DNA from: Flavobacteriales bacterium
Lineage (GTDB): Bacteria > Bacteroidota > Bacteroidia > Palsa-965
Direction of reading: 5' to 3'
DNA length: 64,000 nucleotides
NCBI GenBank assembly: GCA_040377305.1
Contig: JBEIPA010000014.1
Location: forward strand, 64,001 to 128,000
The translations under genes were made by a program, and so were the position numbers. Numbering within the stretch: the stretch's first letter is position 1; the number at the start of each line of letters is the position of its first letter. This document shows, one piece after another, positions 24,869 through 39,123 of the stretch. Under the pieces are notes generated by a model. It saw only the letters and a list, made by a program, of their open reading frames with translations. It was not told the DNA's origin and made no database searches.

Positions 24869-24873
24869 GTGTT

Positions 24874-24957
24874 CAGTAGGCAGTTTGGCAGTAGTGCAGT
24901 TGGCAGTCAAAATATAATTCTCTGACTGCCTACTGCCCAACTGCTTACTGCCTACTG
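24874..24957. repeat. CAGTAGG/CAGTTGG heptamer hairpin spacer
   Basis: Tandem cagtNgg units followed by their reverse complement. Confidence 0.8.
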
Positions 24958-24963
24958 TTCTTG

Positions 24964-25037
24964 TACTCTGTGTGGGATTCGAACCCACGTGATCTGGTCG
25001 AAAACCAGATATACTAGACCAACTATATGAACAGAGC
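24964..25037 (-). tRNA. tRNA-Glu(TTC)
   Basis: GCTCTGT/ACAGAGT acceptor, TCTGG-TTTTCGA-CCAGA arm, GTGGG-TTCGAAT-CCCAC. Confidence 0.88.
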
Positions 25038-25122
25038 CTGATTGATTTGCGGATGACGCGCCGGGTTCTCTCCTTTGGAGAGTTAGAGAGGCGCGGCGCG
25101 TAATCCGCAAATCAATCTTCAG

Positions 25123-25196
25123 TCGCGACAGCAGGATTCGAACCTACATCTTCTCCAGTCCAAGTGGAGAGGCTTAGCCAATTAGCCGACCTCGCG
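25123..25196 (-). tRNA. tRNA-Pro(TGG)
   Basis: C1-G72, A73, CTCCA-CTTGGAC-TGGAG arm; one acceptor mismatch. Confidence 0.82.
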
Positions 25197-25285
25197 ATGT
25201 TGATTAGCTGATTTTTAATTTCTGATTTCTGATGCTGAAAGGTGTTACCCCAAGAGCTAATCAAAAATCAGCTAATCCTATTTAT

Positions 25286-25390
25286 TGTGAGGAAAAAATC
25301 ACAGAAAAGACGAAAGCGCCATCTTTCGATGTCAGGATTCGAACCTGTTTCTTCCTGCCACGAAGTATCTCTTCTGTTACGTCACTCACA
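25286..25390 (-). ncRNA. Y-like RNA Y2 (T arm + short capped stem)
   Basis: GTGACGTA-ACAGAAGAG-ATACTTC stem; CAGG-TTCGAAT-CCTG; CATC-GAAA-GATG. Confidence 0.7.
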
Positions 25391-25421
25391 AACTCAAAGA
25401 ACAAATTCAATTTCAAAATAA

Positions 25422-25510
25422 GCGGGCAAAAGTCAATCAGAGTCTGCCGGGATTTGAACCCGCGTCTTTCGACTTTCTACCAAAGAAGTATCTCTGATTT
25501 ACGGCACCGT
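25422..25510 (-). ncRNA. Y-like RNA Y3 (T arm only)
   Basis: GTGCCGTA-AATCAGAG-ATACTTC paired with CTCTGATT; CGGG-TTCAAAT-CCCG. Confidence 0.7.
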
Positions 25511-25523
25511 TTACTTTTAACTA

Positions 25524-26051
25524 TTATCTCGTCGGGATCTTCAATCCCATTTTCTTCATCGCAAGCAATGCTTCTGCATTTCCGATTGCGTCGTTGACCG
25601 GGTTGTGATCATGACGCGTTTTGCGAAACAATCGCTTCCACTCGCTGTTCAGTCCTCCATCCATTTTCATTCCACAATACAGATCACCGATTCGTCTGCC
25701 TGAAAATCCAAACGGATTTTTTCCCAGGTAGAAATGGAAGTAATAATTAATCCACTGCCAATCGAACGCGAGGTTATCGCTGATGAATATTGCTTTGCCG
25801 TCGGATGTTGCGTTCAACCATTCGGAGAAACGTTTCATCACTTCGGCGGGCTCCTCGAACGACTCGTGTTGCCCGCGTGTGAAACCACTTACTGCAAGTG
25901 CATCCGGAATCCATTCTTTGGAAATTGGTTGCGTCTTTCCGTAGAATGTTTTCGCGAGTGTGGGTTCTATCACCACTGCACCGAAGCAAACCATCGAATA
26001 TTTATTTGGGATGGGCCCATCGGCCTCTACATCCACTACTATGTAACTCAT
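25524..26051 (-). CDS. DEDDh 3'-5' exo(ribo)nuclease
   Basis: VDVEADG (ExoI), DNLAFD (ExoII), HNPVNDA (ExoIII). Confidence 0.85.
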   Translation of the reverse strand: MSYIVVDVEADGPIPNKYSMVCFGAVVIEPTLAKTFYGKTQPISKEWIPDALAVSGFTRGQHESFEEPAEVMKRFSEWLNATSDGKAIFISDNLAFDWQWINYYFHFYLGKNPFGFSGRRIGDLYCGMKMDGGLNSEWKRLFRKTRHDHNPVNDAIGNAEALLAMKKMGLKIPTR

Positions 26052-26083
26052 TTTGTTTTTGTTTTTAATCAATTTAATAATTT

Positions 26084-26156
26084 AAGCTGGCAACAAACTC
26101 GCAGAGGTTTTGGTCTAATTAACAGTTAGAAGTAACTCTGCAATACGGCACAGCTT
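26084..26156 (-). ncRNA. Y-like RNA Y4 (minimal, anticodon stem-loop cargo)
   Basis: GTGCCGTA-TTGCAGAG-TTACTTC stem with CTCTGCGA; TCTAA-CTGTTAA-TTAGA hairpin. Confidence 0.7.
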
Positions 26157-26214
26157 GCCGATGTGCCGATTTCCAATATGCCAATATGCCGATTGGAAAT
26201 ACCTCAATAAAATT

Positions 26215-26332
26215 CGGAAGCAAAAAACGATTCGGGTGGGGCGTCGCAATGAGGATTTGCACCTCTTCCTGGTTTTTACATCAGGACCCTTGCCCCCTGT
26301 CGAGCGAAGTATCCCGGCTCTACGGCATTCCG
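26215..26332 (-). ncRNA. Y-like RNA Y5
   Basis: ATGCCGTA-GAGCCGGG-ATACTTC, terminal CGGAA/TTCCG pairing, GAGG-TGCAAAT-CCTC T-loop-like hairpin. Confidence 0.62.
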
Positions 26333-26335
26333 TTT

Positions 26336-26421
26336 CAGTAGGCCGTTTGGCAGGCGTTCAGTAGGCAGTCAAAATTTATTCCTAATGACTGCCGACTGCA
26401 CTACCGCACTACTGCCTACTG
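26336..26421. repeat. CAGTAGG heptamer hairpin spacer
   Basis: Same family as 24874-24957. Confidence 0.75.
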
Positions 26422-26427
26422 ATTAAA

Positions 26428-26645
26428 CAACGGTAACTGGCAACAAGTCTGCTTTCTGCTTTCACAGAATACGGCCGTCCTATTTCTGTATTGCTACAGA
26501 CAGTTGACTGGTAATCATCATCCGCATGGTGTCAGGATCTGAAATCCTGATACTGCGCACTCAGATTAACGTTCGCGAACCACAGTTACCCGTGCATCAC
26601 TACCTTAGGACCGTTATCGAAGTATGACCCGTTTACGACACGTTG
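26428..26645 (-). ncRNA. Y-like RNA Y6 with 23S rRNA H69/H70-like cargo
   Basis: CAACG/CGTTG ends, GTGTCGTA-AACGGGTC-ATACTTC paired with GACTTGTT; cargo contains ATAACGGTCCTAAGGTAG and CGGCCGTA. Confidence 0.65.
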
Positions 26646-26766
26646 TGTGATGTCAGGATCCTATCCTGACAGTGCACATAATTTTTTCAAAGAACGTTTG
26701 TACTAACCAAGCCGTCGGGCGACCTCTCCTTCAGTGCAATTTCCGAAGGAGAGGCGTAGCCGTAAA

Positions 26767-28281
26767 CTACAACTCGAGTTGTTTTATCATCGCGATTGCA
26801 TCTGTACCGTTTTCTGCAGCATACAATACGTCGAACACTTTATCTGACCAGCCCGCGATGAGTGTTACATCGTCGCGCTGCACACTGATTGGTGTGTTAC
26901 CGTAACCTGCGAGGTCGAACAAGTACAGTTTCGCCATTGGCGCAATCTGTTTGTATTCTTTCCACGCCGTCTGCAACGAATCACCGTCAGCTTTGGTATT
27001 CCACATCTGGCAGTCAGTGAACATCATCACTTTGTCCATCACAACATTGCGCTGAACAAGATCTTTGATCACCAGGTAACCATTTGTGGCGTAACCAACT
27101 TCACCTTCCCGCTTGTAGTACTCATCAACATTCGCAAGTACTCCACGGTTAGGCATGTTGATTACCTTCCAGCGATCTCCGAACATTCCGGAAACCACTC
27201 GTTCACACTTGCTCTGCATCAGCATACCCAGTACCAGACCGATATCGAACAAATACACTTTGCTCTTCGCCGAGATTGGTTTCTGCATTGAACCCGAAAC
27301 GTCACACGCAATCAACACACGTGTTTTGTAATCGAATCCGCTGATGTTTTTCGCTGAAGCTACAATTGCATCTTCCAGCGCGTTAAGTATCATCGACACG
27401 TAATCAGCTTTCAGCACTTTCACTTCACGGTATGCAGACAGGAAACGGAATGGCAACTGCTTCGATTTCGCAACCTGGTTTGCATCAGAAAGCGTATCAC
27501 ACACTTTTTTGATTGCATCCCATGATACACCCGCTTCAATCATGTTACGGATGTTACGCAACATCGCCATGTATCCCAGCTTACCGCTGAAGATCAGTTC
27601 TTCCCATTTCGCACGAACCGCAAGCTCTTTTGCTTTTGCATCAGCGAATTTTTGCTGACCCAAAGCAGAAAGTTCAGTTTCCCAGGTATAAGCAACAGAC
27701 AGCTCTTTCGCAGCGATCTTGTTGAAGACTGCTTGCTGTTCATCACTTTTCGCTTTCGGGTGAACAAGGAACAATGCATCACGCAACGTTACTGCCGCTT
27801 CACGGTTGTATTTCGAGAACTGGTATTCATCAAAACGATTGAACGCCTTTGCGAGTCCTTTCTGTACCTGTTTCGAAAGCTTGTTCAGTTTCTTAGTTCC
27901 CGAACGGTTGTTCGCCAGTTGGTAGTAAGCCAGAAGCTCAGTGATCTCATCAGCACGCTGAACGACACCGTTCACCGCTTTGGATACAACTATATTTCCG
28001 GAGTTACGTTTTGCAAGTTCGACTGCAAGCACCTGTGGAATAGAACGCATGTACATTTTGTTACGTGCATACACCGCAAGCTTCGCCACGAATTCAGCAT
28101 CTGTCTTCTCCATGAGATCCACGATACGTTGAAGACGCTCGTTTCCTTTCTCATAGAACGAATCGCTCAGTCCTGCGGTTACTACCGCTGAATACAGTTC
28201 GAGCTCAGGAGTCATTGCGAATGCTTTTGCGCCTTCGTAATTAGTGACTGCTGTTTTACGTTTGAAGATGTTGAATTTCAT
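26767..28281 (-). CDS. rsr: Ro60/Rsr TROVE-domain RNA-binding protein with vWA domain
   Basis: NYEGAKAF, FDEYQFSKY, YTWETELS, LGYMAMLRN, QLPFRF, DVSGSM MIDAS, FTDCQ. Confidence 0.93.
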   Translation of the reverse strand: MKFNIFKRKTAVTNYEGAKAFAMTPELELYSAVVTAGLSDSFYEKGNERLQRIVDLMEKTDAEFVAKLAVYARNKMYMRSIPQVLAVELAKRNSGNIVVSKAVNGVVQRADEITELLAYYQLANNRSGTKKLNKLSKQVQKGLAKAFNRFDEYQFSKYNREAAVTLRDALFLVHPKAKSDEQQAVFNKIAAKELSVAYTWETELSALGQQKFADAKAKELAVRAKWEELIFSGKLGYMAMLRNIRNMIEAGVSWDAIKKVCDTLSDANQVAKSKQLPFRFLSAYREVKVLKADYVSMILNALEDAIVASAKNISGFDYKTRVLIACDVSGSMQKPISAKSKVYLFDIGLVLGMLMQSKCERVVSGMFGDRWKVINMPNRGVLANVDEYYKREGEVGYATNGYLVIKDLVQRNVVMDKVMMFTDCQMWNTKADGDSLQTAWKEYKQIAPMAKLYLFDLAGYGNTPISVQRDDVTLIAGWSDKVFDVLYAAENGTDAIAMIKQLEL

Positions 28282-28327
28282 GACTGTTTGTTTTAATTGT
28301 TATTGACGCTGCAAATGTTTTACTCAT

Positions 28328-28348
28328 CTACGCAATGGTCTTGCGCAG
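28328..28348. promoter_or_regulatory. Candidate WYL-regulator operator (site 1)
   Basis: CTACGCAA-N5-TTGCGCAG just upstream of the TROVE gene. Confidence 0.6.
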
Positions 28349-28434
28349 TTCGATTTATTTTAACTTTTTGTTTTAATCGCCTGATTTTCAGTTGGCATTA
28401 ATTCGTTTTTTCAATCGCAACATTTATTGCGGCG

Positions 28435-28507
28435 TTGGAAAGGAAGGGCTCGAACCTTCGACCTTGTGCGTATAAGGCACGTGCTCTTACCACTGAGCTA
28501 CTCTCCA
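28435..28507 (-). tRNA. tRNA-Ile(TAT)
   Basis: TGGAGAG/CTTTCCA acceptor, GTGC-CTTATAC-GCAC arm, canonical D and T arms. Confidence 0.82.
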
Positions 28508-28514
28508 AGTCTTG

Positions 28515-28586
28515 CGGCGCGGATTGGACTTGAACCAATATAATCTCCCTTAACAGGGGAGAGCTCTACCATTGAGCTACCAGGCC
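28515..28586 (-). tRNA. tRNA-Asn(GTT)
   Basis: CTCCC-CTGTTAA-GGGAG arm, G73; one acceptor mismatch. Confidence 0.85.
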
Positions 28587-28591
28587 ATTTG

Positions 28592-28664
28592 CGGTAACGA
28601 TGGGATTCGAACCCACAACTTTCCGATAGACAATCGGACGCTCTAGCCGTTGAACTACGCTACC
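28592..28664 (-). tRNA. tRNA-Asp(GTC)
   Basis: GGTAGCG/CGTTACC, TCCGA-TTGTCTA-TCGGA arm, G73. Confidence 0.87.
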
Positions 28665-28669
28665 ATTTG

Positions 28670-28742
28670 TGGACAAGGAAGGAATTGAACCTTCATCTTC
28701 TGATCTTCAGTCAGCCGCATTCACCGCGTTTGCTACCTGTCC
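28670..28742 (-). tRNA. tRNA-Phe(GAA)
   Basis: GGACAGG/CTTGTCC, CTGA-CTGAAGA-TCAG arm. Confidence 0.85.
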
Positions 28743-28748
28743 GTTTTG

Positions 28749-28822
28749 TTGACCCACCAGGGCTCGAACCTGGAACCCCCACTTTAAAAGAGCGGTGCAT
28801 CTAACCATTGAGCTATGGATCA
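28749..28822 (-). tRNA. tRNA-Lys(TTT)
   Basis: TGATCCA/TGGGTCA, CCGCT-CTTTTAA-AGTGG arm. Confidence 0.85.
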
Positions 28823-28835
28823 ATATTTCTTCGCT

Positions 28836-28891
28836 TGTCCTCCTTCGGCAAAGCCTGTGCTGAGCGAAGTCGAAGTGCTCAGTCTGACAAG
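28836..28891. repeat. REP-like element (CTGAGCGAAGTCGAAG family)
   Basis: ctgagcgaagtcgaag core; inverted relative cttcgactacgctcag at about 28988-29003. Confidence 0.6.
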
Positions 28892-28894
28892 TCG

Positions 28895-28965
28895 TTGTCG
28901 GAAATGGATTTGAACCACTATAGCCAGATTCAAACTCTGGTGTCCTACCATTAGACGATCCGACA
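28895..28965 (-). tRNA. tRNA-Gln(TTG)
   Basis: TGTCGGA/TCCGACA, CCAGA-GTTTGAA-TCTGG arm. Confidence 0.87.
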
Positions 28966-29010
28966 TTCAGTGTGTTTTCTTGTCATTCTTCGACTACGCT
29001 CAGTATGACA

Positions 29011-29041
29011 ATAAAAAAACCCGGTCGTGTGCGGACCGGGT
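29011..29041 (-). terminator. Attenuator terminator 2
   Basis: ACCCGGTC-loop-GACCGGGT followed by a T tract on - strand. Confidence 0.85.
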
Positions 29042-29064
29042 CTAACAAATCAGTTCAACTGATT

Positions 29065-29154
29065 TCAGTTATGACAACATCGGTCCACGAATTTTCCTTT
29101 CTGAAAATCTCGTTCGCTAAAATTGGGCAAGGCTATATAACTATGTTTCTTCAT
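29065..29154 (-). CDS. Leader peptide 2 (MKKHSYIALPNFSERDFQKGKFVDRCCHN)
   Basis: 29-aa ORF ending just before the terminator; contains GGACCG complementary to the terminator 5' arm. Confidence 0.7.
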   Translation of the reverse strand: MKKHSYIALPNFSERDFQKGKFVDRCCHN

Positions 29155-29252
29155 GGTGTTTCTTTCTCTTCAACTTTTTTATTGTCAGGCCGAGTAGTCA
29201 TTGCAGTCTGCGGAGCAACTTGTGCTTGAAGATCGACGTACCGAGGTCGGGC

Positions 29253-29282
29253 AATAAAAAAGCCCCGAATCTCTCCGGGGCT
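29253..29282 (-). terminator. Attenuator terminator 1
   Basis: AGCCCCGG-loop-TCGGGGCT followed by TTTTTATT. Confidence 0.85.
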
Positions 29283-29307
29283 TTACTTCAGTTATATCCT
29301 AAAGCAA

Positions 29308-29385
29308 TTACACCCCGTGCAACAGACGATCTCCTTCGAGATTTATCTGTTTGCGTGTTTGCGGATATGTAAAATGCTTTTTCAT
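29308..29385 (-). CDS. Leader peptide 1 (MKKHFTYPQTRKQINLEGDRLLHGV)
   Basis: 25-aa ORF after a TATATTTG promoter; ends in CGGGGT complementary to the terminator 5' arm. Confidence 0.7.
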   Translation of the reverse strand: MKKHFTYPQTRKQINLEGDRLLHGV

Positions 29386-29404
29386 TTTTCTTCTTATTCT
29401 GCGA

Positions 29405-29412
29405 CAAATATA
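29405..29412 (-). promoter_or_regulatory. Bacteroidota -7 promoter element TATATTTG
   Basis: Matches the TAnnTTTG consensus, about 20 nt upstream of leader 1. Confidence 0.65.
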
Positions 29413-29489
29413 TTGTAAAGAAATAATGCGATCCAAATTATTCTGCAATTATTTTTCATGATTTGCAGTATTTACTTCACTTTGTCCAA

Positions 29490-29510
29490 CTGCGCAAATA
29501 CATTGCGCAG
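29490..29510. promoter_or_regulatory. Candidate WYL-regulator operator (site 2)
   Basis: Perfect CTGCGCAA-N5-TTGCGCAG 35 nt upstream of the WYL gene. Confidence 0.65.
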
Positions 29511-29545
29511 ATAATTCTATCTTAGATGAGCCAATCACGCACATC

Positions 29546-30574
29546 ATGCCGATAAACAAACTCGCACTCATCCGCTACAAGACAATTGATAACTGTCTGC
29601 AGAACCGTTTCCGCAAATGGACACTTGACGATCTAGTGGATGCATGCTCGCGTACACTGGAAGAGTTCGAAGGAATTACACAAGGAGTAAGCAAGCGTAC
29701 TGTTCAGCTCGATATTCAGACGATGCGCAGTGAAAAGCTAGGATACAATGCTCCTATTGTGGTCAGCGACAAGAAGTATTATTCGTACGAAGACAAGAAT
29801 TACAGCATCACGAATATTCCGTTGACGAGTCAGGATTTAGGAACGCTCACGGAAGTTGTAGATATTCTACGCCAGTTTAAAGGGTTCGGTTACTTCGAAG
29901 AGCTCAGCACAATGGTGAACAAGCTCGAGGACAAAGTGCAGTCTCAGAAGAACAAAGGTCGCTCGTATATACACTTTGAGAAAAATGATTTGCTAAAAGG
30001 TCTCGAGTACATCGAATCATTGCACAAGGCGATCATTCGTCAGAAAACGATTGACGTATTATATCAGTCGTTCAAAGCACGTGAAGCGACAAGCATCATT
30101 TTTCATCCTTATCTGCTCAAGGAATACCGCAACCGCTGGTTTGTGATCGGCTCAACGCAAAAGAAAACAATTCTTACTCTGGCACTGGATAGAATTTTTT
30201 CTGTGAAAGAAGTCGGTGGAGAGAAATACATCAAGAATACCTTCTTTGATGTTGACTCGTACTTTGATGATACGATTGGCGTTACGAAGAATCTCGGGAT
30301 TCGACCACAATTGGTCGTGATGAAAATTGATCGTACGAATGCGCCATACGTAATCACAAAACCGATTCACCACACGCAGAAGATTCTGAAGACAGAACCC
30401 GACGGAATGATTTTCAGTATTAACGTGACGTGGAATTTTGAGTTGGAAAGAGAAATCCTTGGGTTTGGTGAACAGATAAAGGTGTTATCGCCAAAGAGAT
30501 TGCAGAATAAGATTAGCTGGAGGGTGAAGAGGATGGTGGAGAGGTATGAGGAACTTCAACCAAATGAACGATGA
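29546..30574 (+). CDS. wHTH-WYL-WCX transcriptional regulator
   Basis: N-terminal HTH (VSKRTVQLDIQTMR), HPYLLKEYRNRWFV and LALDRI WYL motifs, VLSPKRL tail. Confidence 0.92.
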   Translation: MPINKLALIRYKTIDNCLQNRFRKWTLDDLVDACSRTLEEFEGITQGVSKRTVQLDIQTMRSEKLGYNAPIVVSDKKYYSYEDKNYSITNIPLTSQDLGTLTEVVDILRQFKGFGYFEELSTMVNKLEDKVQSQKNKGRSYIHFEKNDLLKGLEYIESLHKAIIRQKTIDVLYQSFKAREATSIIFHPYLLKEYRNRWFVIGSTQKKTILTLALDRIFSVKEVGGEKYIKNTFFDVDSYFDDTIGVTKNLGIRPQLVVMKIDRTNAPYVITKPIHHTQKILKTEPDGMIFSINVTWNFELEREILGFGEQIKVLSPKRLQNKISWRVKRMVERYEELQPNER

Positions 30575-31659
30575 GCGGCAAAGTAAATTCATTTCACGAA
30601 GCAGTTCGAACGAGACCTGGCATGTATATTGGCAGATTGGGTCCCGCTGGTTTCGGTTATCTTGTCAGCGAACTGATTAGAGATTTTGCTGCTGACCTGC
30701 AAGCAAAAGAAGCGCATGTGAGGATCGACATAAAAGGGAAGGTCACAATTAAATTTCCCGAAATAAATTGCACTCAGGCTGACCTTTATACTTTAATAAA
30801 AAATGGTCGGATGAGTCGCAGTTCTTCATTTTGGAGGACATCACTTGCCATTATCCCGCCGTTATCAAAAGCGACCACGCTCAAAATCGGAAGCACTAAG
30901 TATACTGTCAGCCGCAACGCTAAACTTAATCCTCACTTCGAGTCCGATACCGCTAAAGCTATTTCACGATTTGAAATAACCTTTCAACCGGATGCAGGTA
31001 TTCTCAAAGCCAAAGCGCCTGAAATACTTACTTTATGTGCTCGCTTGCATGAGCTCACGGTGGTTTGTCCCGGATTAAAAATCACTTACCGTGATGACAA
31101 TACAAAACCATTTACGCAAATGGTCTGGCATACTCCTGAAGGAATACGCACACTATTGGCGCCGGCACGAAATATGTTTTATGAAAAGAAATTAGAAGGA
31201 GGTTTTTCCTTTAACGAAAAAGGACTACGCGGTGAGGTGTACTGGTTATGTGCAAACGGGGGATGTGATCCTATCTATTCATTTGCTAACGGTGAACGTA
31301 CTGTGAAAGGCGGATCGCATGTGAAAGGATGCGTACAAGGTATACTGGACGCGTTGAAGGATTTAGTCAAAGGAAATGGCGAGAAATATGACTTCAGTGT
31401 GTCTCGTGCAATCCGACATCAATGTCTCGTAGTTTCCGTTTGGGGAAACGGCCTAAGCTATGCGGGCAGTACAAAAGAATGTCTGGAACATAAACCTACA
31501 AACCAAATTCTCCGCAAACTTGTTGGTGCGCACATGGAGCAGCTGTGTGCGTCGAATCCAAAGGATGCTATACAACTTACGTATCGGTTGCAGAAATGGA
31601 ATCTTGCGGAGATGTATCCTGAATTGTATTCCGGAAAATCAAGGAAAAAGAAGAAGTAA
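30571..31659 (+). CDS. Stand-alone degenerate GyrB/ParE N-terminal (GHKL + transducer)-like protein
   Basis: EAVRTRPGMYIG, SFANGERTVKGGSHVKG, YAGSTKECL; no TOPRIM domain. Confidence 0.75.
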   Translation: MSGKVNSFHEAVRTRPGMYIGRLGPAGFGYLVSELIRDFAADLQAKEAHVRIDIKGKVTIKFPEINCTQADLYTLIKNGRMSRSSSFWRTSLAIIPPLSKATTLKIGSTKYTVSRNAKLNPHFESDTAKAISRFEITFQPDAGILKAKAPEILTLCARLHELTVVCPGLKITYRDDNTKPFTQMVWHTPEGIRTLLAPARNMFYEKKLEGGFSFNEKGLRGEVYWLCANGGCDPIYSFANGERTVKGGSHVKGCVQGILDALKDLVKGNGEKYDFSVSRAIRHQCLVVSVWGNGLSYAGSTKECLEHKPTNQILRKLVGAHMEQLCASNPKDAIQLTYRLQKWNLAEMYPELYSGKSRKKKK

Positions 31660-31660
31660 G

Positions 31661-32293
31661 ATGAAAATCATAGCCATTTCAGATACACACGGTCAGCATG
31701 GGAAGGTTGTGCTACCGGAAGGTGATGCGATTATTCACGCTGGTGATGTTTCCGTACGTGGAACTGAATCGCAGATCGTCGATTTCATCAACTGGTTTTC
31801 GGGACTGAACTATCGGTACAAGATTTTCATTGCGGGCAATCATGACTTCTTCTTCGAAAGAGAGTCACAGGAGAAAATCAAATCTCTGATTCCCGAGAAC
31901 GTTATATACCTGAACGATTCCGGTATTGAACTAGAAGGAATCAAAATCTGGGGCTCGCCGATTCAACCCTGGTTTCAGGACTGGGCGTTTAATCGGCAGA
32001 GAGGAATTGATATTCGTAAACACTGGGACATGATTCCGGGTGACACGGATATACTCATCACTCACGGGCCAGCGAAAGGAATTCTCGATCGCTTGGTTTA
32101 CGGAGAAGAAGTTGGTTGTGTTGATCTTCTTGACGCGGTTAACAGAATCAATCCCGCCTTTCATGTCTTCGGCCACATTCATGAAGGATACGGAGAGCAT
32201 CAAGAAGGGAAAACTAAATTCATTAACGCTGCCGTTCTCAATGAAGATTATTTCCTCGCGAATTCACCAATAGCATTTGAGTTCCTAAAATAA
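31661..32293 (+). CDS. Calcineurin-like metallophosphoesterase
   Basis: SDTH, HAGD, AGNHD, THGP, GHIH. Confidence 0.92.
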   Translation: MKIIAISDTHGQHGKVVLPEGDAIIHAGDVSVRGTESQIVDFINWFSGLNYRYKIFIAGNHDFFFERESQEKIKSLIPENVIYLNDSGIELEGIKIWGSPIQPWFQDWAFNRQRGIDIRKHWDMIPGDTDILITHGPAKGILDRLVYGEEVGCVDLLDAVNRINPAFHVFGHIHEGYGEHQEGKTKFINAAVLNEDYFLANSPIAFEFLK

Positions 32294-32294
32294 G

Positions 32295-32380
32295 TTGGGT
32301 AGGCCGGATTCGAACCGACATGTTTAGCACGTGGCAGCAGATTTACAGTCTGCCCCCTTCACCAGTTTGGATACTACCCA
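32295..32380 (-). tRNA. tRNA-Tyr(GTA) copy A
   Basis: TGGGTAG/CTACCCA, GCAGA-CTGTAAA-TCTGC, long variable region. Confidence 0.87.
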
Positions 32381-32384
32381 GTTT

Positions 32385-32455
32385 CAGTAAGCAGTTGTGC
32401 AGTTGGCGGTATCATAATTTGACTGCTTGCTGCCAGGCTGCACTACTGCCTACTG
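32385..32455. repeat. CAGTAAG/CAGTTG heptamer hairpin spacer
   Basis: Same family; duplicated together with tRNA-Tyr. Confidence 0.75.
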
Positions 32456-32461
32456 TTTCAG

Positions 32462-32544
32462 CGGAAGATATAGGAGTCGAACCCTGTCCTTTCGGACCGC
32501 CCCAGATTTCAAGTCTGGTTGACCACCATCGGTCGCTATCTTCC
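32462..32544 (-). tRNA. tRNA-Ser(TGA), non-canonical cloverleaf
   Basis: 8-bp GGAAGATA/TATCTTCC acceptor, G73, CCAGA-CTTGAAA-TCTGG, GTCC-GAAA-GGAC variable arm, short T stem. Confidence 0.75.
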
Positions 32545-32552
32545 AATAATTG

Positions 32553-32640
32553 CGGAGAACATTGGAATTGAACCAATAGTTCACTTTCGCGAACGCACAT
32601 TAGCAGTGTGCTGCAACGAGCCAATAGTTGCCTGCTCTCC
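32553..32640 (-). tRNA. tRNA-Ser(GCT), atypical
   Basis: GGAGAGC/GTTCTCC, G73, GCACA-CTGCTAA-TGTGC, 6-bp variable arm, A8, 5-bp D stem. Confidence 0.82.
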
Positions 32641-32643
32641 TTA

Positions 32644-32725
32644 CAGTAGGCAGTTGGGCAGTCGTTCAGTAGTCAGTCAAGTATTTTTTTGACTGCCTAC
32701 TGCCAAACTGCATTACTGCTTACTG
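32644..32725. repeat. CAGTAGG heptamer hairpin spacer
   Basis: Same family. Confidence 0.75.
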
Positions 32726-32731
32726 GCAAAG

Positions 32732-32805
32732 TACTCCGAAGCAGATTCGAACTGCTACTTAACGGGGCTTAACGCCGTTGTCTCTTCCAGTTGGACTACC
32801 GGAGT
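32732..32805 (-). tRNA. tRNA-Leu(TAA), short variable loop
   Basis: ACTCCGG/TCGGAGT, loop GTTAAGC, A73. Confidence 0.75.
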
Positions 32806-32814
32806 AAAAATTAG

Positions 32815-32900
32815 TTGGGTAGACAGGATTCGAACCTGTACGTTTAGCACATGGCAGCAGATTTACAGTCTGCCCCCTTCACCAGTTTGGATACTACCCA
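32815..32900 (-). tRNA. tRNA-Tyr(GTA) copy B
   Basis: Near-identical to copy A with compensatory T-stem changes. Confidence 0.87.
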
Positions 32901-32904
32901 GTTT

Positions 32905-32980
32905 CAGTAGGCAGTAAGCAGTTGTGCAGTTGGCAGTATCATAATTTGACTGCTTACTGCACACTGCACTGCTGCCTACT
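32905..32980. repeat. CAGTAGG heptamer hairpin spacer
   Basis: Same family. Confidence 0.75.
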
Positions 32981-32987
32981 TCTTTCG

Positions 32988-33060
32988 TAGCGATAAAGAG
33001 ATTCGAACTCTTACTGAACGGTTTCTAAGACCGTTGCCTCTGCCGTTGGGCTACATCGCT
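32988..33060 (-). tRNA. tRNA-Leu(TAG), short variable loop
   Basis: AGCGATG/TATCGCT, ACGGT-CTTAGAA-ACCGT, A73. Confidence 0.83.
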
Positions 33061-33120
33061 ATTTTTTACACAACACTCTTCCACCTCCACATCGCGAATA
33101 TTTTTTCGCAACATGAACTA

Positions 33121-33154
33121 AAAACAAAAAGCCTCCTGATGTTTTCAGGAGGCT
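33121..33154 (-). terminator. Attenuator terminator 3
   Basis: AGCCTCCTGA-loop-TCAGGAGGCT followed by TTTTGTTTT. Confidence 0.88.
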
Positions 33155-33179
33155 CTCGTATACTGTATGATATTACAGA

Positions 33180-33260
33180 TTACACAATACAATCCTCCCT
33201 GTCATTCGTGAGTGAATAACTGCTCAATAAGAGGAGAGAATATGTGTTTACTGTTTTCAT
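33180..33260 (-). CDS. Leader peptide 3 (MKTVNTYSLLLLSSYSLTNDREDCIV)
   Basis: 26-aa ORF between a CACCTTTG promoter-like element and the terminator; CAGGGAGG can pair with the terminator 5' arm. Confidence 0.8.
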   Translation of the reverse strand: MKTVNTYSLLLLSSYSLTNDREDCIV

Positions 33261-33340
33261 TCTGATGCAAAGGTGAAACTTTTTTTCAATCGCTCCGACA
33301 TGAAGTGGAAAATATTTTTTTGATGCGTGAAAACTAAAAC

Positions 33341-33348
33341 TACATTTG
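33341..33348 (+). promoter_or_regulatory. Bacteroidota -7 promoter element TACATTTG
   Basis: TAnnTTTG consensus with upstream TTTG. Confidence 0.6.
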
Positions 33349-33363
33349 CCGTGAAAGACAACC

Positions 33364-33402
33364 ATGAAGGAAGTCTTCAACCATCAACCGCTTCACTCTT
33401 GA
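33364..33402 (+). CDS. Putative leader peptide MKEVFNHQPLHS
   Basis: 12-aa ORF directly after the promoter, ahead of the RNA ligase operon. Confidence 0.45.
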   Translation: MKEVFNHQPLHS

Positions 33403-33506
33403 AGTCATGTAATGCCACAGTCATAACCGGTTCGCGCCGGTAATATCATCTGCCTCTTCCTGAGCGCGGACTGTGATTTTATTATCTTTTCTTAATTCAA
33501 ATTACC

Positions 33507-34205
33507 ATGGCTATTTCAAGAAAATACGGCCGTACATACCATTATCCATTTTCTCCCGGAACTACAAGCGATGATCGCATCAGCCACGACTACTGGAATG
33601 ATGTGACAAAAATTGCTTCGCTGATTCACACGGAAAAACTGGACGGTGAAAACAATTGCCTTAATCGTTATGGTGTTTTTGCGCGTTCGCATGCGGCCCC
33701 ATCGCAATCGCCGTGGACGGCATGGTTGCGTGAACGTTGGGAGTTACTGAAACATGATCTCGGTGATCTGGAAATATTCGGCGAGAATCTTTACGCAATA
33801 CATTCAATCGAATACGCGAAGCTGGAAAATCATTATTATGTTTTCGGTGTGCGGCGCGAAGATCATTGGTTGTCGTGGGAGGAAACTAAGTTCTATGCGA
33901 GTATGCTGGACTTTCCGACTGTACCTGAGATTCAACTTATTTCGACACCCATCGACCGGAAAGTATTCGAAGCCGATGTGCTTTCGATTGTTTCGCAGGA
34001 AAGTAAAATGGGAAGCCTCGATGCTTTCACCGGCAAAGTCTGCACGATGGAAGGAATTGTAACCCGCAACACCGGCGAATATGCCGTAACTGATTTCGCG
34101 CATCATGTTTTCAAATACGTGCGAAAAAGTCACGTGAAAACAGATGCACACTGGACACGTAACTGGAGAAGATCAAAACTGATCTGGGAACGAGCCGGCG
34201 ACTAA
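33507..34205 (+). CDS. ATP-dependent RNA ligase family protein
   Basis: KYGRTYHYPFSPG..DD, motif I TEKLDGEN, FGEN, EGIVTR, FKYV. Confidence 0.88.
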   Translation: MAISRKYGRTYHYPFSPGTTSDDRISHDYWNDVTKIASLIHTEKLDGENNCLNRYGVFARSHAAPSQSPWTAWLRERWELLKHDLGDLEIFGENLYAIHSIEYAKLENHYYVFGVRREDHWLSWEETKFYASMLDFPTVPEIQLISTPIDRKVFEADVLSIVSQESKMGSLDAFTGKVCTMEGIVTRNTGEYAVTDFAHHVFKYVRKSHVKTDAHWTRNWRRSKLIWERAGD

Positions 34206-34223
34206 CTAACAATTTCAAAATGA

Positions 34224-35336
34224 ATGTTTATGTGGACAATTTCGGATATAAAGCAATGGCAAACGCTCTACGACAAGTTCGACTGGGTGCGCGATATGCG
34301 TGGCGTTCCCCAGGATCGCGTGCATCATGCAGAAGGTGATGTGGAAGTACATACGCGCATGGTACTTGATGCGTTGGAAAATCTTCCAGACTATCAGCAA
34401 CTGAATGAACAGGACAGAGAAATTCTTTGGGCTTCTGCTTTGCTGCACGATGTAGAAAAACGATCAACTACTATTCACAATGAAGACGGACGTATATCTT
34501 CTCCCAATCACGCAAAAAAGGGTGCAGCTACAACGCGCAGTTTGTTGTACCGCAACATTCCCGCACCGTTTCATATTCGCGAAGCTGTGGTGAAGCTCGT
34601 GCGTTATCACGGCTTACCGCTGTGGGTATTCCATAAACCTGATCCGGCAAAAGCGCTAATTGCGGCAAGTCTTTCCGTGAATACGCATCACCTTAGTCTG
34701 CTCGCTGAAGCAGATGTGCTTGGAAGAGAATGCGCGGATCGTAATGAACTTCTTTATCGTGTGGAAATGTTTCGGGAACTATGCAAAGAACAGCTCGCGT
34801 ATGGAAAAGCAAAATCCTTTCCATCTGAACTCAGCAAGATGAACTATTTCCGGAAAGAAGACGGTTCGCCGGACTATGAACCATTCGACGTTACGCAATG
34901 TGAAGTAGTTTTACTTTCAGGTTTGCCGGGATCAGGAAAAGACAATTATCTGCGGAAATATCTGAAAGAGTGGCCGGTGGTAAGCATCGATGACATTCGA
35001 AAGAAAAATAAAATCTCCCCGACGGATAAAAAAGGAAATGGCCAGGCGATACAGATGGCGAAGGAACAGGCGCGAGTATACCTGCGAAGCAAAACTTCAT
35101 TCGTGTGGAATGCAACGAACATCACGCGATCTATGCGAGGGCAGTTGATTGATCTGTTTCTCACTTACAAAGCGAAAGTGAAGATCGTGTACGTAGAGGT
35201 TCCTTACGCCACATTGCGTAGACAAAACCGCGAACGTGAACACGTGGTTCCGGCAGCTGCATTGGAGAAATTAATCGATAAGCTGGAGGTTCCAACGCCG
35301 GACGAAGCGCATGAGATCATATATGAAATAAAATAG
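34224..35336 (+). CDS. HD-domain phosphohydrolase + P-loop (polynucleotide kinase-like) protein
   Basis: HHAEGDV..HT, ALLHDVEK, GLPGSGK Walker A, WNATN. Confidence 0.87.
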   Translation: MFMWTISDIKQWQTLYDKFDWVRDMRGVPQDRVHHAEGDVEVHTRMVLDALENLPDYQQLNEQDREILWASALLHDVEKRSTTIHNEDGRISSPNHAKKGAATTRSLLYRNIPAPFHIREAVVKLVRYHGLPLWVFHKPDPAKALIAASLSVNTHHLSLLAEADVLGRECADRNELLYRVEMFRELCKEQLAYGKAKSFPSELSKMNYFRKEDGSPDYEPFDVTQCEVVLLSGLPGSGKDNYLRKYLKEWPVVSIDDIRKKNKISPTDKKGNGQAIQMAKEQARVYLRSKTSFVWNATNITRSMRGQLIDLFLTYKAKVKIVYVEVPYATLRRQNREREHVVPAAALEKLIDKLEVPTPDEAHEIIYEIK

Positions 35337-35431
35337 TGCCCGGACAATCAATTGCAGATGTTCCTTTTTTTAAATATCCATTAAACATGACACTTTTTAT
35401 TGCATCTTAGCTGCTCAACAAATGCATTCTT

Positions 35432-35983
35432 ATGTCCGCTATTTATGATTCCTACGCCATCTTCGGCGAATTTACCGGTAAAGATCTCGGCACCGAAGAA
35501 ATGAAAATGGGATTAGCAAACCGCGTCTTCAATCGTACAGAGGCGCTTCACGGTGACGCAATTTCACTCGTCAAAAAATCCAATCATGAACGCATCCGTC
35601 TGAAACGGGGAGTGTACCGCATTACGGCAACTTCTTTTTTAACCATGCTCACTGCGGGAGTTCCGCCGGTACCTCCGGTGAAGACAGAATTTCTCTCCGA
35701 TGTGTACCCCGGCTACTGTATGTTGTATGATGCAAACGATCCTCCTACCGAAGCGGACATGTCTAAGATGCTTTATCCCGGAACCATGGGAACGGCTTAT
35801 GATGGCGTTCCAAGTCTTCTCGATTGTGTGCTCAAAGTAAAAGACAAACACATGGACATTTCACTCGGCCACCAGTGCAGCTACGATGGACCTAAGGGAG
35901 ATCTCCGGCCAAAAGTTTATCTGCGTATCGGCGGTTCAGACTTCCACGTATGCGCACGCATTTCCATTTTTAAGATCGCTTAA
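35432..35983 (+). CDS. Hypothetical protein
   Basis: 183-aa ORF, no motif recognised. Confidence 0.6.
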   Translation: MSAIYDSYAIFGEFTGKDLGTEEMKMGLANRVFNRTEALHGDAISLVKKSNHERIRLKRGVYRITATSFLTMLTAGVPPVPPVKTEFLSDVYPGYCMLYDANDPPTEADMSKMLYPGTMGTAYDGVPSLLDCVLKVKDKHMDISLGHQCSYDGPKGDLRPKVYLRIGGSDFHVCARISIFKIA

Positions 35984-36005
35984 AACAACCACAATTCTGA
36001 GCTGT

Positions 36006-36779
36006 ATGAAAATATTTCTTGCACCTGTTGCATTGGGTCTGCTGCTGCTCACATGCAGTTCACCGAAAGAAAGTAATCACGCCGTTGATTCCGCTGCTGT
36101 TGACACAACGAAAAACGACACCCCGTTAGTCAGCGGCAATGGAGCTGCATTTGTCTACGGCATCGACATCTCTTCCTACCAGGGCGACGAGATCGATTTT
36201 CTTAACAGCAAACAGGATACACTTTCGTTTGTAATCTGCAGAGCAACACTCGGTATTACGGTTACCGACACCGACTTTAAGAACAACTGGAGCCTCATTC
36301 CACAAAAGGGATTTATCCGCGGGGCTTATCACTTTTATGAATGTAACGACGATCCAACCGAACAGGCGCAACATTATCTCGACATTGTTGGTACTCTTGC
36401 TGCCGGAGATCTTCCTCCTATTCTTGATTTTGAACAGGCGGGCCTCGCCGACATTATAGACAAGCAGAAAATTCAGAGTGACCTACTGACTTTTCTCAGC
36501 ACAGTGGAAAGCGCAACCGGGAGAACACCTTTGATTTATGTAAGTCCGGACTTTGCGAATGTGTATCTGACTGATCCGGCATTTGCGAAGTATCCCTTGT
36601 ACGTTGCCGACTACAACGGACAACAGAAGCCATCCGTTCCGACGGTGTGGAAATCGGAGCAATGGACGCTCTGGCAAAAAACGGACACCGTTCACGTGAA
36701 CGGAAATCAAAATGACTACGACATGTTCAATGGTAGCGCAGAAGCCTTACAGGCATTCATTAACGGAACCGGCAAGTAA
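36006..36779 (+). CDS. GH25 lysozyme/muramidase lipoprotein
   Basis: GIDISSYQG, RGAYHFY, PPILDFE, WTLWQ. Confidence 0.9.
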   Translation: MKIFLAPVALGLLLLTCSSPKESNHAVDSAAVDTTKNDTPLVSGNGAAFVYGIDISSYQGDEIDFLNSKQDTLSFVICRATLGITVTDTDFKNNWSLIPQKGFIRGAYHFYECNDDPTEQAQHYLDIVGTLAAGDLPPILDFEQAGLADIIDKQKIQSDLLTFLSTVESATGRTPLIYVSPDFANVYLTDPAFAKYPLYVADYNGQQKPSVPTVWKSEQWTLWQKTDTVHVNGNQNDYDMFNGSAEALQAFINGTGK

Positions 36780-36787
36780 AATTATTG

Positions 36788-37402
36788 TCAGAGCGGCTCG
36801 CGTATTATTTTACCCGCATTTCCCCTCTGCAACGAATGGTGCTCCAGCCATTGCGACCTTTGTTGCGCGTTCAATTCATCGACATGCATACCGAGCAGTT
36901 TATTCTTCAAACGTTCAGTAGCTGCTTTTTTATTCAACATCTGCGAACGTTCCTCTGAAGCCGTAACACTGATTCCGCTTGGAACATGCGTAGCACGAAC
37001 TGCTGATTCCGTTTTGTTCACATGCTGTCCACCGGGACCTGATGCGCGCATGGTTTGATACGTAACGTCTTTCTCTTTCCATTCAGGAAAAACGGATACA
37101 TCATAAACGTGGATGCCCGCAAACCAATTTTTTCGTTTGTGGTTTTTCCGGAACGGACTCTGCGCAATCCACTGCACGGTTCCTTCCCACTCTATATAGA
37201 ACGAAGACACGTTTTCTCCTCTGATCCGGATCAGTGCCGACAACAACGTATCATCCGGCTTCCCGGGAACAAGCTCAATGATTTCCACACCGAGCTGTTC
37301 CCGTTCTGCCGCTTTCGTAATCTTCTTAAGAAGAAGCGCCACAACTCTTTCGCATTCTGCCGGACCTTTGCCGGAAGTTATCTGCATGATTTTTTCTTTC
37401 AT
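36788..37402 (-). CDS. prfH: Peptide chain release factor H
   Basis: TSGKGPAEC, GTVQW...SPFR..HKRKNWF, GGQ motif; adjacent to rtcB. Confidence 0.93.
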   Translation of the reverse strand: MKEKIMQITSGKGPAECERVVALLLKKITKAAEREQLGVEIIELVPGKPDDTLLSALIRIRGENVSSFYIEWEGTVQWIAQSPFRKNHKRKNWFAGIHVYDVSVFPEWKEKDVTYQTMRASGPGGQHVNKTESAVRATHVPSGISVTASEERSQMLNKKAATERLKNKLLGMHVDELNAQQRSQWLEHHSLQRGNAGKIIREPL

Positions 37403-37407
37403 CGTTT

Positions 37408-38814
37408 CTATTCTTTATTCATGCGTACAATCTTCGGCGTAAACTTTCCGTGAACCTCCACGAGATCCTGCTGTGCCTTCATCACGTCATCGATGTCTTT
37501 GTATGCAAGAGGCGATTCTTCAGAACTTCCTCCGACCATCGTTACATCTGCAGCATTCAGCATTTGTCGTAATCCGGAATTCGTAATAGATTCCTTCGCT
37601 TTTTTACGCGACATTTTTCTGCCCGCTCCATGCGAAGCAGAGTTTAGTGATTCCGGAACTCCTTTGCCACACACGAGATATCCACCGTGAATCATGTTAC
37701 CAGGAATAATTCCAAGCTCGCCTTTGTGCGCCGGCGTAGCACCTTTACGATGAACAATCATCTCTGCTCCATCTTCCATCGTCTCTTTCCATGCAAAGTT
37801 GTGATGATTCTCTACTTTCGCAACTGGTTTAATTCCGAGTGCACGAGAGAGATTGATGTGAATCCTGTCGTGACACGCTTTCGCGTAATCGCCTGCAAGA
37901 TTCATACTCAGCCAATATTCCTGTCCTTCCGCGCTGGTGAGATCAAGCCACGCCATGTGTTGTGCATTGCGCGGAAGCTTGCACACGTCCATCGCAACAT
38001 CCGTGTAGTGCTTTGCGATTGTTGCACCCAATCCGCGTGAACCGGAATGCGACAAGAGTGCAACATAATTTCCTGCCGCCATGCCCAGTGTATTTTCCTC
38101 ATTGAGTTCAATCACACCAAACTCTACGAAGTGATTTCCTCCACCCGATGATCCCAGCTGTCTGACTGCTTTACCATGCAATTTTTTCAGCAGTTGCGTT
38201 TCATTGAACGACGGATCATCAAGCACATCATGATCCTGCGCGAATTCCAGACATCCTTCCATTCCGAAGTGCGTGTAATCTTTCAGCGCCATTTTCAATT
38301 CGTGCCGGTTATGTTCAAGATACTTTTCCGGCAAATCAAAAATGGAAAGCGCCATGCGACAACCAATGTCAACACCAACTCCAAATGGAATTACTGCATT
38401 CTCCGCAGCAAGCACACCTCCAATCGGCAAACCGAATCCGCTGTGCGCATCAGGCATCAGCGCTCCTCGTCTGCTTACCGGTAAGCTCAACGCAATTTCC
38501 ATTTGCTGAATTGCTGAGTACTCGATGTGTTGACGTCCGTAGATTTTCACCGGAGCCAACTCGCTGAGCAATTCATGCGTGCGATACTTTTTGTCGGGTA
38601 ATCTTTCCATGAACGTAGACGCCAGTTTCGACAACACTCCATCGCCCAGAAATTCTTCCGGATTTGCTTTCACCTCACAGAACAATTTCAGCACCTCTTC
38701 CTTTGCAGTGTGCTTGAAATGTTGCGACGCGATGATCACTGCCAGACTTTTCGATGTATTGTGATGAAAGCCCATGCGATCGAGATCTTTACTTTTAACT
38801 TTATTCTTACTCAT
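37408..38814 (-). CDS. rtcB: RtcB RNA ligase (copy 2, PrfH-associated)
   Basis: All RtcB motifs present; start MSKNK at 38814 by comparison with copy 1. Confidence 0.93.
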   Translation of the reverse strand: MSKNKVKSKDLDRMGFHHNTSKSLAVIIASQHFKHTAKEEVLKLFCEVKANPEEFLGDGVLSKLASTFMERLPDKKYRTHELLSELAPVKIYGRQHIEYSAIQQMEIALSLPVSRRGALMPDAHSGFGLPIGGVLAAENAVIPFGVGVDIGCRMALSIFDLPEKYLEHNRHELKMALKDYTHFGMEGCLEFAQDHDVLDDPSFNETQLLKKLHGKAVRQLGSSGGGNHFVEFGVIELNEENTLGMAAGNYVALLSHSGSRGLGATIAKHYTDVAMDVCKLPRNAQHMAWLDLTSAEGQEYWLSMNLAGDYAKACHDRIHINLSRALGIKPVAKVENHHNFAWKETMEDGAEMIVHRKGATPAHKGELGIIPGNMIHGGYLVCGKGVPESLNSASHGAGRKMSRKKAKESITNSGLRQMLNAADVTMVGGSSEESPLAYKDIDDVMKAQQDLVEVHGKFTPKIVRMNKE

Positions 38815-38971
38815 TTGTTTCTTCGTTGTTGAATTTAAGTTCTTTGAATTCTCTTCCCACTGTAAGCCGAATCCGTTGCTTCTCCTCTTGTGTCTTTCGG
38901 ATCTGAGTTCTTCTTCGTTTTGTTCTGAACCTTCCGGACAAGACATAGGAATCCCATGTGGCTGTTGCCAT
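38807..38971 (-). CDS. Small basic protein (54 aa) coupled to rtcB copy 2
   Basis: MATATWDSYVLSGRFRTKRRRTQIRK...; A-rich initiation context; stop overlaps the rtcB start (ATGAGTAA). Confidence 0.5.
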   Translation of the reverse strand: MATATWDSYVLSGRFRTKRRRTQIRKTQEEKQRIRLTVGREFKELKFNNEETNE

Positions 38972-39123
38972 TGTTTTTTGTTGTGTTGAATAAACAGTGA
39001 ATTATTCCGATGAATCAGAAGACCTGCAAATGCAACCACGGGCCACAGAAATTCTGTAGTTAGTCAGCGCCGACTATGAAAACTTTATTCGTAAAAAATG
39101 GAAATAGAATTCAAAGCCGCGCT

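Follow-up and report, generated by a model that had tools for sequence, protein, structure and literature searches.

We report here on a putative transcription attenuator lying in front of six tRNA genes in a stretch of 64,000 nucleotides (the window) from a Flavobacteriales bacterium (contig JBEIPA010000014.1, positions 64,001 to 128,000). A short open reading frame (ORF) with a run of codons for tyrosine, serine and leucine only is followed by an intrinsic terminator and then by tRNA genes for the same three amino acids, and we consider it likely that this is a trp-type attenuator turning on spare Leu, Ser and Tyr tRNAs when ribosomes stall, most probably after tRNA damage. Such a layout had been proposed in a sequence-only reading of this DNA, and it is now supported by a comparative match between leaders and arrays and by a modelled switch point at the end of the Tyr/Ser/Leu run. 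The leader was compared with three orthologous ones (L111, L113/L131 and L125), giving the four sequences referred to below as the four orthologues. The features concerned are the following, with the strand in brackets:

33268-33275 (-), -7 box-like element of the Bacteroidota sigma-A type, CACCTTTG
33260 (ATG) to 33180 (TAA) (-), leader ORF of 26 amino acids, MKTVNTYSLLLLSSYSLTNDREDCIV
33210-33242 (-), control codons 7-17, Tyr/Ser/Leu only; also segment 1 of a possible 1:2 hairpin
33194-33201 (-), segment 2, the predicted antiterminator strand, CAGGGAGG, pairing with the terminator 5' arm
33156-33187 (-), spacer hairpin (predicted fold), which would put segment 2 beside the terminator 5' arm
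33152-33146 (-), terminator 5' arm, CCTCCTG
33117-33157 (-), intrinsic terminator with a 13-pair stem (33157-33127) and a U tract
32987-33060 (-), tRNA-Leu(TAG), 74 nt, short variable arm, A73 (ARAGORN default score, Rfam)
32814-32900 (-), tRNA-Tyr(GTA) copy 1 (ARAGORN default score, Rfam)
32731-32805 (-), tRNA-Leu(TAA), 75 nt, short variable arm, anticodon-stem mismatch (ARAGORN default score; Rfam 40 bits)
32552-32640 (-), tRNA-Ser(GCT) (ARAGORN default score; below the Rfam gathering score)
32461-32544 (-), tRNA-Ser(TGA) (ARAGORN relaxed score only; below the Rfam gathering score; called in orthologue L125)
32294-32380 (-), tRNA-Tyr(GTA) copy 2, a 109-nt duplicate 92% like copy 1 (ARAGORN default score)
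32382-32456, 32641-32725 and 32902-32980, three palindromic REP-like repeats between the tRNAs, of a family found elsewhere in the genome too
ending at 32293, metallophosphoesterase gene, convergent on the array

The leader ORF, which had been described as holding eleven consecutive Tyr, Ser and Leu codons, has the coordinates and codons claimed for it, codons 7-17 reading TAT TCT CTC CTC TTA TTG AGC AGT TAT TCA CTC. Runs of at least 11 residues made up of these three amino acids are absent from the 1.53 million residues of long ORFs genome-wide, and six are present in the 10.35 million six-frame codons of the genome, the leader's own run included. Start, length and stop of the leader, the -7 box and the terminator stem are all unchanged in the four orthologues, and the five variable positions within codons 7-17 all still encode Leu, Ser or Tyr, through swaps that include TTA/TCA/TCG and a three-base change of AGC to TCA; 29 of the 99 single-base changes possible in the run would preserve this class, and outside the run the amino acid is altered at 9 of 10 variable positions. 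As far as four aligned sequences allow, this supports selection on amino-acid identity in codons 7-17. In a 46-kb contig spanning the leader, one change falls in the leader, at codon 23 and outside the run, an observation that carries little weight, being drawn from the 11 differences listed out of 16.

The promoter-like element that had been proposed stands in an altered form: a sigma-70 promoter scan, which looks for a type not suited to this phylum, gave no match at the leader, and what is found instead resembles the -7 box of Bacteroidetes (consensus TAnnTTTG, PMC9723704), from which CACCTTTG differs at the first base only. It lies 7 nt from the leader ATG. The leader has an A at position -3, the role of which has been described (PMC6847099); an A is found there in 15 of 29 leaders against a background of 30% (p=0.011), and this, together with the substitution pattern, is an indirect hint that the leader may be translated.

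The strong terminator claimed to lie between the leader and the tRNAs was recovered, its 13-pair stem being followed by a T tail, and no internal -7 box was found between it and the first tRNA. The strand just past the control codons does pair with the terminator 5' arm in the predicted folds, as had been suggested, and as folded the antiterminator would be a 6-pair GGGAGG:CCUCCU helix closing the spacer hairpin. Leader and terminator together fold with a z of -5.4 relative to 200 shuffles. For each of the four orthologues, the nascent RNA ending at the terminator loop was folded with a 15-nt ribosome footprint. The pairing of segment 2 with the terminator 5' arm (2:3 pairing) in this model was at least 0.9 with the A-site at codons 5-16, 0.3-0.6 at codon 17 and at most 0.1 from codon 18 onwards in every one of them; a footprint of 12 or 18 nt shifts the boundary by one codon, leaving the switch at codon 17 +/- 1 in 4 of 4. 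The Tyr/Ser/Leu run itself ends at codon 17, matching the modelled switch point. In silico, the antiterminator excludes the terminator, is freed by a stall on the control codons and is blocked by a ribosome that has moved beyond them, which is the arrangement expected of a trp-type attenuator.

The comparison of leader codon content with array content in related genomes, which had been put forward as a check, was carried out on 307 loci anchored on RNA-repair genes, the units being extracted by a fixed rule blind to codon content: a terminator of -13 kcal/mol or below at most 200 nt from the first tRNA and an ORF of 10-55 codons ending near the terminator, with either the promoter or the energy of the antiterminator deciding the frame. 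Families were set by likeness of the leader DNA and not by a tree, and tRNA calls came from ARAGORN and an anticodon-arm rule, which took the place of a BLAST-based rescue of weak calls that was too strict. Rule and codon window were fixed when about 25 pairs were already known, and only L279-L307 are out of sample. Probable junk was kept in the set (a housekeeping Thr-Tyr-Gly-Thr cluster and mis-picked frames), and three sub-threshold pairs that looked supportive (L180, L211 and L149) were left uncounted. Whole-array DNA queries, also tried, were discarded, their matches being mostly to housekeeping tRNAs or non-tRNA flanks.

This yielded 38 distinct leader-terminator-array units in 19 leader families, all at Bacteroidota loci. 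When the 12 codons before the antiterminator were scored against the leader's own array, the score was 22.3, compared with 0.04 +/- 4.3 in 20,000 permutations (p=5e-5, the lowest value that this number can yield), and p was again 5e-5 when all codons ahead of the antiterminator, or the entire ORF, were scored; for the controls, p was 0.047 in frame +1, 0.18 in frame +2, 0.09 in reverse and 0.61 for the codons past the antiterminator. The match persists when the Leu/Ser/Tyr family is left out (p=5e-5), when in addition likely kin are pooled into 13 groups (1e-4) and when the strongest remaining pair is also dropped (5e-4), and the excess is greatest 5-7 codons before the antiterminator. Ranked among the 19 arrays, a family's own array came first in 7 families, second in 4, third or fourth in 2 and 6th to 16th in 6, the three out-of-sample families ranking theirs 4th, 2nd and 3rd. 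These comparisons support the view that leader content tracks array content over unrelated families, the match being confined to codons that are in frame and ahead of the antiterminator.

A unit stands directly before Ro60 at 8 of the 43 loci where tRNAs lie behind and at none of the 56 where they do not (Fisher p=8.5e-4, kin not being independent), and nine viral Ro60 loci had no unit. The housekeeping control gave 2 units among 42 arrays, both at the Thr-Tyr-Gly-Thr cluster; in L015, 2 of 12 codons are matched, and for that family the leader's own array comes 6th among the 19. Of the 39 tRNA loci in the window's genome, 4 carry a unit, namely the two island arrays (the Leu/Ser/Tyr array and the one described below), a Cys/Met leader and one leader without a match.

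All six tRNAs described for the array, Leu(TAG), Tyr, Leu(TAA), Ser(GCT), Ser(TGA) and Tyr, were called, the Ser(TGA) gene at a relaxed score only, and at the gathering score Rfam confirmed four of them and missed both Ser genes. As the gene past the last tRNA lies on the opposite strand, the transcript would consist of tRNAs and the three palindromic repeats only; it holds no biosynthetic or synthetase gene of the kind that trp-type attenuators control. Housekeeping Leu-TAG, Leu-TAA, Ser-GCT, Ser-TGA and Tyr-GTA are all present elsewhere in the genome. The array tRNA-Leu are 74-75 nt long and have no long variable arm, compared with 81-85 nt for the housekeeping ones, and given its anticodon-stem mismatch the tRNA-Leu(TAA) is possibly decaying. 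In 19 of 20 array Leu rows the length is at most 79 nt (two of these are probably miscalled Y-like RNAs), which, short-arm Leu being the norm, speaks for a conserved type rather than for decay. Discriminator bases are A73 in the array Leu and Tyr and G73 in Ser, and these are the bases that fit the identity rules for Leu and Tyr and for Ser, respectively.

Short-arm array tRNA-Leu (74-79 nt) also occur at L125, L086, L214, L244, L245, L292 and L293.

The mechanism that we propose is as follows. Polymerase would start at the -7 box and a ribosome would load on the leader. With a normal tRNA supply, and assuming coupled transcription and translation, the ribosome would move past codon 17-18 and cover segment 2, upon which the terminator, as modelled in silico, would form and transcription would stop before the tRNAs. 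Were a Leu, Ser or Tyr codon slow to be read, the ribosome would halt within codons 7-17, leaving segment 2 free to pair with the emerging 5' arm and permitting read-through, a step that is likewise modelled in silico and necessarily kinetic. The six tRNAs would then be processed and decoding restored, closing the loop. Induction, processing and function of the tRNAs are in this scheme what we infer, and it is the RNA-repair neighbourhood, together with the redundancy of the array, that points to loss or cleavage of tRNA as the trigger and to replacement as the role.

Several results weigh against this mechanism, beginning with the folding itself. At equilibrium the terminator state is favoured (-28.3 vs -18.0 kcal/mol for the antiterminator), and a ribosome stalled on the leader does not alter this, so that switching has to be kinetic and to depend on kinetic trapping and coupling. 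Without a ribosome the 2:3 pairing is 0.46, 0.01, 0.87 and 0.71 in the four orthologues, making the 1:2 protector unreliable; it is seen in full-length and consensus folds and is dominant in the untranslated nascent RNA of one orthologue of the four, for which reason no firm prediction follows for a start-codon knockout. Modelled stalls at codons 2-6 likewise permit antitermination, so that general stalls could act as triggers too. Two-sided changes are found in 1 of 44 consensus pairs, and with four sequences that are 89% identical, covariation was discarded as proof of the structure, the sequences being too few and too alike.

The comparative data also hold points on this side of the scale. 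L111 retains only Leu and a broken Tyr gene and yet keeps its Ser and Tyr codons, and L113/L131 have no Ser tRNA genes and keep their Ser codons, so far as these cases go suggesting that leaders do not follow tRNA loss quickly; L114 and L115 are array remnants without a leader. Six of the families rank their own array 6th to 16th (L015, L126 twice, L182, L208 and L222). The leader does contain codons from both Ser and both Leu boxes, as had been observed, but box matching does not exceed expectation across the set (Leu 19/26 with 16.4 expected, Ser 12/23 with 14.5, Arg 14/25 with 15.1), and Ile is encoded by ATA in 26 of 31 cases with Ile(TAT) and in 18 of 29 without (Fisher p=0.08); judged from these codon counts, the matching is at the level of the amino acid and not of the Leu or Ser codon box. 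A unit stands directly in front of 28 of 99 distinct arrays of at least three tRNAs, those without one including housekeeping clusters, blocks inside operons and contig-edge cases. For leaders at the head of Ro60 operons with the tRNAs inside the operon, there is a trend only (8 loci, p=0.066).

Some of these points bear on other explanations. The same attenuator may have as its natural signal amino-acid starvation, poor charging or synthetase inhibition, with the array tuning tRNA supply to charging: the stall is identical however charged tRNA is lost, as established for trp and his, the matching is by amino acid and not by codon box, and the same genome has a plainly nutritional case in the Cys/Met-rich leader before tRNA-Cys and a sulfite-reductase/cobA-cysG operon. 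We nevertheless regard this as unlikely here, since no Leu, Ser or Tyr biosynthetic or synthetase gene lies behind the array, extra tRNA would presumably be no cure for starvation, and the units are grouped with genes for RtcB, Ro60, RNA ligase and PrfH, a context for which the anchors themselves selected. It is quite unlikely that the leader is a generic upstream ORF for translation stress, similar to toiL of E. coli, that responds to any stalled ribosome (for instance, under antibiotics) and in which codon content is minor. This would accommodate the intact antiterminator at modelled stalls on codons 2-6, the induction of the Anabaena trn array by chloramphenicol (PMC8421152; PMC10272220) and the other short ORFs ahead of the RNA ligase and rtcB2-prfH genes, and it leaves unexplained both the in-frame, position-specific match of leaders to their own arrays and the confinement of substitutions to Leu, Ser and Tyr.

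It seems to us very unlikely that the sensor is real while the tRNAs it induces, instead of taking over decoding, are decoys or substrates for nucleases and for the repair machinery. Discriminator bases are intact and short-arm Leu is the norm in such arrays; against these stand the missing long arm of the array Leu, the Leu-TAA stem mismatch and the low-scoring Ser genes, along with the report from Anabaena of cleavage in some operonic but not housekeeping tRNAs, where the authors raise a sponge role (PMC8421152). Least credible of all, and highly improbable, is a chance or relic arrangement in which the ORF would not be translated and the terminator would do no more than keep a decaying array silent: leaderless remnants do exist and the promoter is one base off consensus, but the rarity of the run, the conserved start, stop and amino-acid class and the permutation tests all argue otherwise.

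The array lies within an RNA-repair island (22482-39039; Pfam, NCBIfam) that holds 16 tRNA genes, 6 of them in the Leu/Ser/Tyr array. Its other components are:

22482-23885, RtcB
24552-25196 (-), tRNA array 3, Pro, Glu, His and Arg(ACG), past Ro60 and the exonuclease
within the island, Rv2179c-like exonuclease
26767-28281, Ro60/TROVE
28434-28965 (-), tRNA array 2, Gln, Lys, Phe, Asp, Asn and Ile(TAT) (ARAGORN, Rfam)
29154-29065 (-), sister leader A2, MKKHSYIALPNFSERDFQKGKFVDRCCHN, with terminator 29043-29017
29385-29308 (-), sister leader A1, MKKHFTYPQTRKQINLEGDRLLHGV, with terminator 29284-29259
29546-30574, WYL regulator (WYL-WCX)
33507-34205, RNA ligase
34224-35336, HD/kinase
36788-37402, PrfH
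37408-39039, second RtcB

Arrays 2 and 3 together hold ten tRNAs on one strand and are headed by the tandem leader-terminator units A1 and A2, each of which encodes 10 of the 10 amino acids of these arrays in 18 codons, with Ile as ATA; random ORF windows hold all ten at a frequency of 0.0007 (A1) and 0.0005 (A2). The sister leaders would act like the Leu/Ser/Tyr leader for the other ten tRNAs and for Ro60 and RtcB, so that the island would split 13 amino acids between two sensors.

On a wider and tentative reading, which we hold to be possible but short of probable, Bacteroidota would possess a modular, self-indexing form of tRNA surveillance in which each leader lists every amino acid of its own block one or more times, the ribosome audits the tRNA pool, and the matching spares and (via tandem leaders) RtcB and Ro60 are switched on when anticodon nucleases or toxins destroy a tRNA class. 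Bacterial tRNAs with a long variable arm are those for Leu, Ser and Tyr, and the set audited by the present leader would be these three families, with short-arm Leu perhaps able to escape toxins that recognise the arm. A comparison by eye of array and housekeeping copies found no systematic anticodon-loop changes of a nuclease-escape kind except A37 in the array Leu-TAG.

Further observations were made in the island and at other loci. Full coverage by tandem leaders recurs at L228 (10/10 twice) and at L146 and L292 (8/8 twice). The tRNA-Ile(TAT) at 28434-28507, the anticodon of which is unusual in bacteria, is common in such arrays and has no other default-score copy in the genome. A palindrome, CTGCGCAA-N5-TTGCG(C/T)AG, occurs at 29489-29511 before the WYL gene and at 28328-28349 before Ro60, where it adjoins a second -7-like box; it is probably the WYL operator and is absent from the Leu/Ser/Tyr promoter. 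Behind the WYL gene, 30571-31659 (+) encodes a 362-amino-acid protein with a DNA-gyrase-B-like transducer domain only. Directly behind -7 boxes, and upstream of the RNA-ligase and rtcB2-prfH genes, lie the short ORFs MKEVFNHQPLHS (33364-33402, +) and MKEQANISPLQFSA (39168-39124, -), whose amino acids are nearly one of each; neither is followed by a clear intrinsic terminator, and no conserved leader family was found before the RNA-ligase gene, some short ORF of mixed sequence being present at 15 of 80 loci. Past Ro60 and the exonuclease, at 24620-26780 (-), there are tRNA-like elements other than tRNAs that open with a shared GTGCCGTAGA-like motif; they are probably Y-like (Yrl) RNAs, with no Rfam match.

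Small independent units (L204, L161, L190, L192 and L193) are of the types FCFCCF before Cys and Phe tRNAs, CC before a lone Cys tRNA and IQ(S)C(F)IPQ before Pro/Ile(TAT)/Cys/Gln(Phe) tRNAs, and no leader unit accompanies the Cys/Glu/His/Pro/Arg tRNA cluster that is found repeatedly within a single family of the phylum (L254-L277). At L308 (G000:C50:23451 downwards) the leader MKITRNINSQSYMMCMMCCCMMCSTGGDTRM and a terminator precede tRNA-Cys(GCA) and then a nitrite/sulfite-reductase, cobA/cysG operon; its modelled switch lies at codon 21-22, the end of the Cys/Met run, and it looks like a Cys/Met attenuator with a tRNA as its first regulated gene.

The trpL, hisL, pheL and pheM-pheST leaders are ribosome-mediated transcription attenuators of amino-acid operons, and those of thr and ilvGMEDA are multivalent. 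The present element shares with them a short leader with clustered control codons, an antiterminator strand near the leader 3' end, an intrinsic terminator, a switch set by ribosome position and the use of several amino acids per leader. It differs in that its output would be tRNA genes only, with no enzymes or synthetases, so that feedback would act on the amount of tRNA, and in that the 1:2 protector is not consistently predicted; since it appears to work like a trp-type attenuator but without a biosynthetic or synthetase output, it is best regarded as a variant of that kind. In T-box riboswitches, too, tRNA status controls antitermination, but a T-box binds tRNA directly; an Rfam scan of the window found tRNAs only and no T-box. 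The pheL attenuator is described in PMC3082878, and ribosome-attenuator leaders before amino-acid operons have been reported in Flavobacterium (PMC9723704).

As in the Anabaena trn operon and the L-arrays (PMC8421152; PMC10272220), whose trn tRNA genes are normally silent and tied to translational stress, the array duplicates tRNAs of the housekeeping set and is linked to rtcB. Unlike the L-arrays, which have up to 43 tRNA genes, it has 6 (16 in the island) that are matched codon-wise to a leader, and in Anabaena control is exerted by the repressor TrcR, which acts on repeats in the promoter; none of the words leader, attenuation and terminator is used in PMC8421152. The rsr-yrlBA-rtcBA operon of Salmonella likewise brings together Ro60, Y-like RNAs and RtcB with tRNA damage as the switch, being activated by RtcR binding tRNA halves (PMC7790460), but there the sensor is a CARF-domain sigma-54 activator, whereas here it would be a ribosome on a leader, with tRNA genes in the output; no RtcR-like (CARF/sigma-54) domain was found among the 28 neighbouring proteins scanned (the rest of the genome was not searched), a WYL-WCX regulator being present instead. 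Short ORFs that sense stalls are also known from the tandem attenuators of Salmonella mgtCBR (PMC3641672), tandem as before array 2, and from E. coli toiL under translation stress (PMC12121999); these control protein genes with codons unmatched to downstream tRNA genes, and toiL works through ribosome-site occlusion and Rho.

If the proposed attenuator is real, tRNA genes would be regulated isotype by isotype through the codons they read, with negative feedback on tRNA supply, whereas the known controls of stress tRNA arrays (TrcR) and of RNA repair (RtcR) are proteins. Redundant bacterial tRNA arrays would gain a testable purpose, the leaders could provide a compact reporter for tRNA damage, and they would form a genomic read-out of the tRNAs attacked in nature by toxins and anticodon nucleases. 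A full-text literature search, outside the scope of which most subscription papers lie, found no report of leader-peptide attenuation of tRNA genes, and the supplementary leader lists of PMC9723704 and PMC4833913 could include cases. The present case is unusually clean, because the regulated transcript would consist of tRNAs only and because many leader families of cellular bacteria that are unrelated to one another show the match as well.

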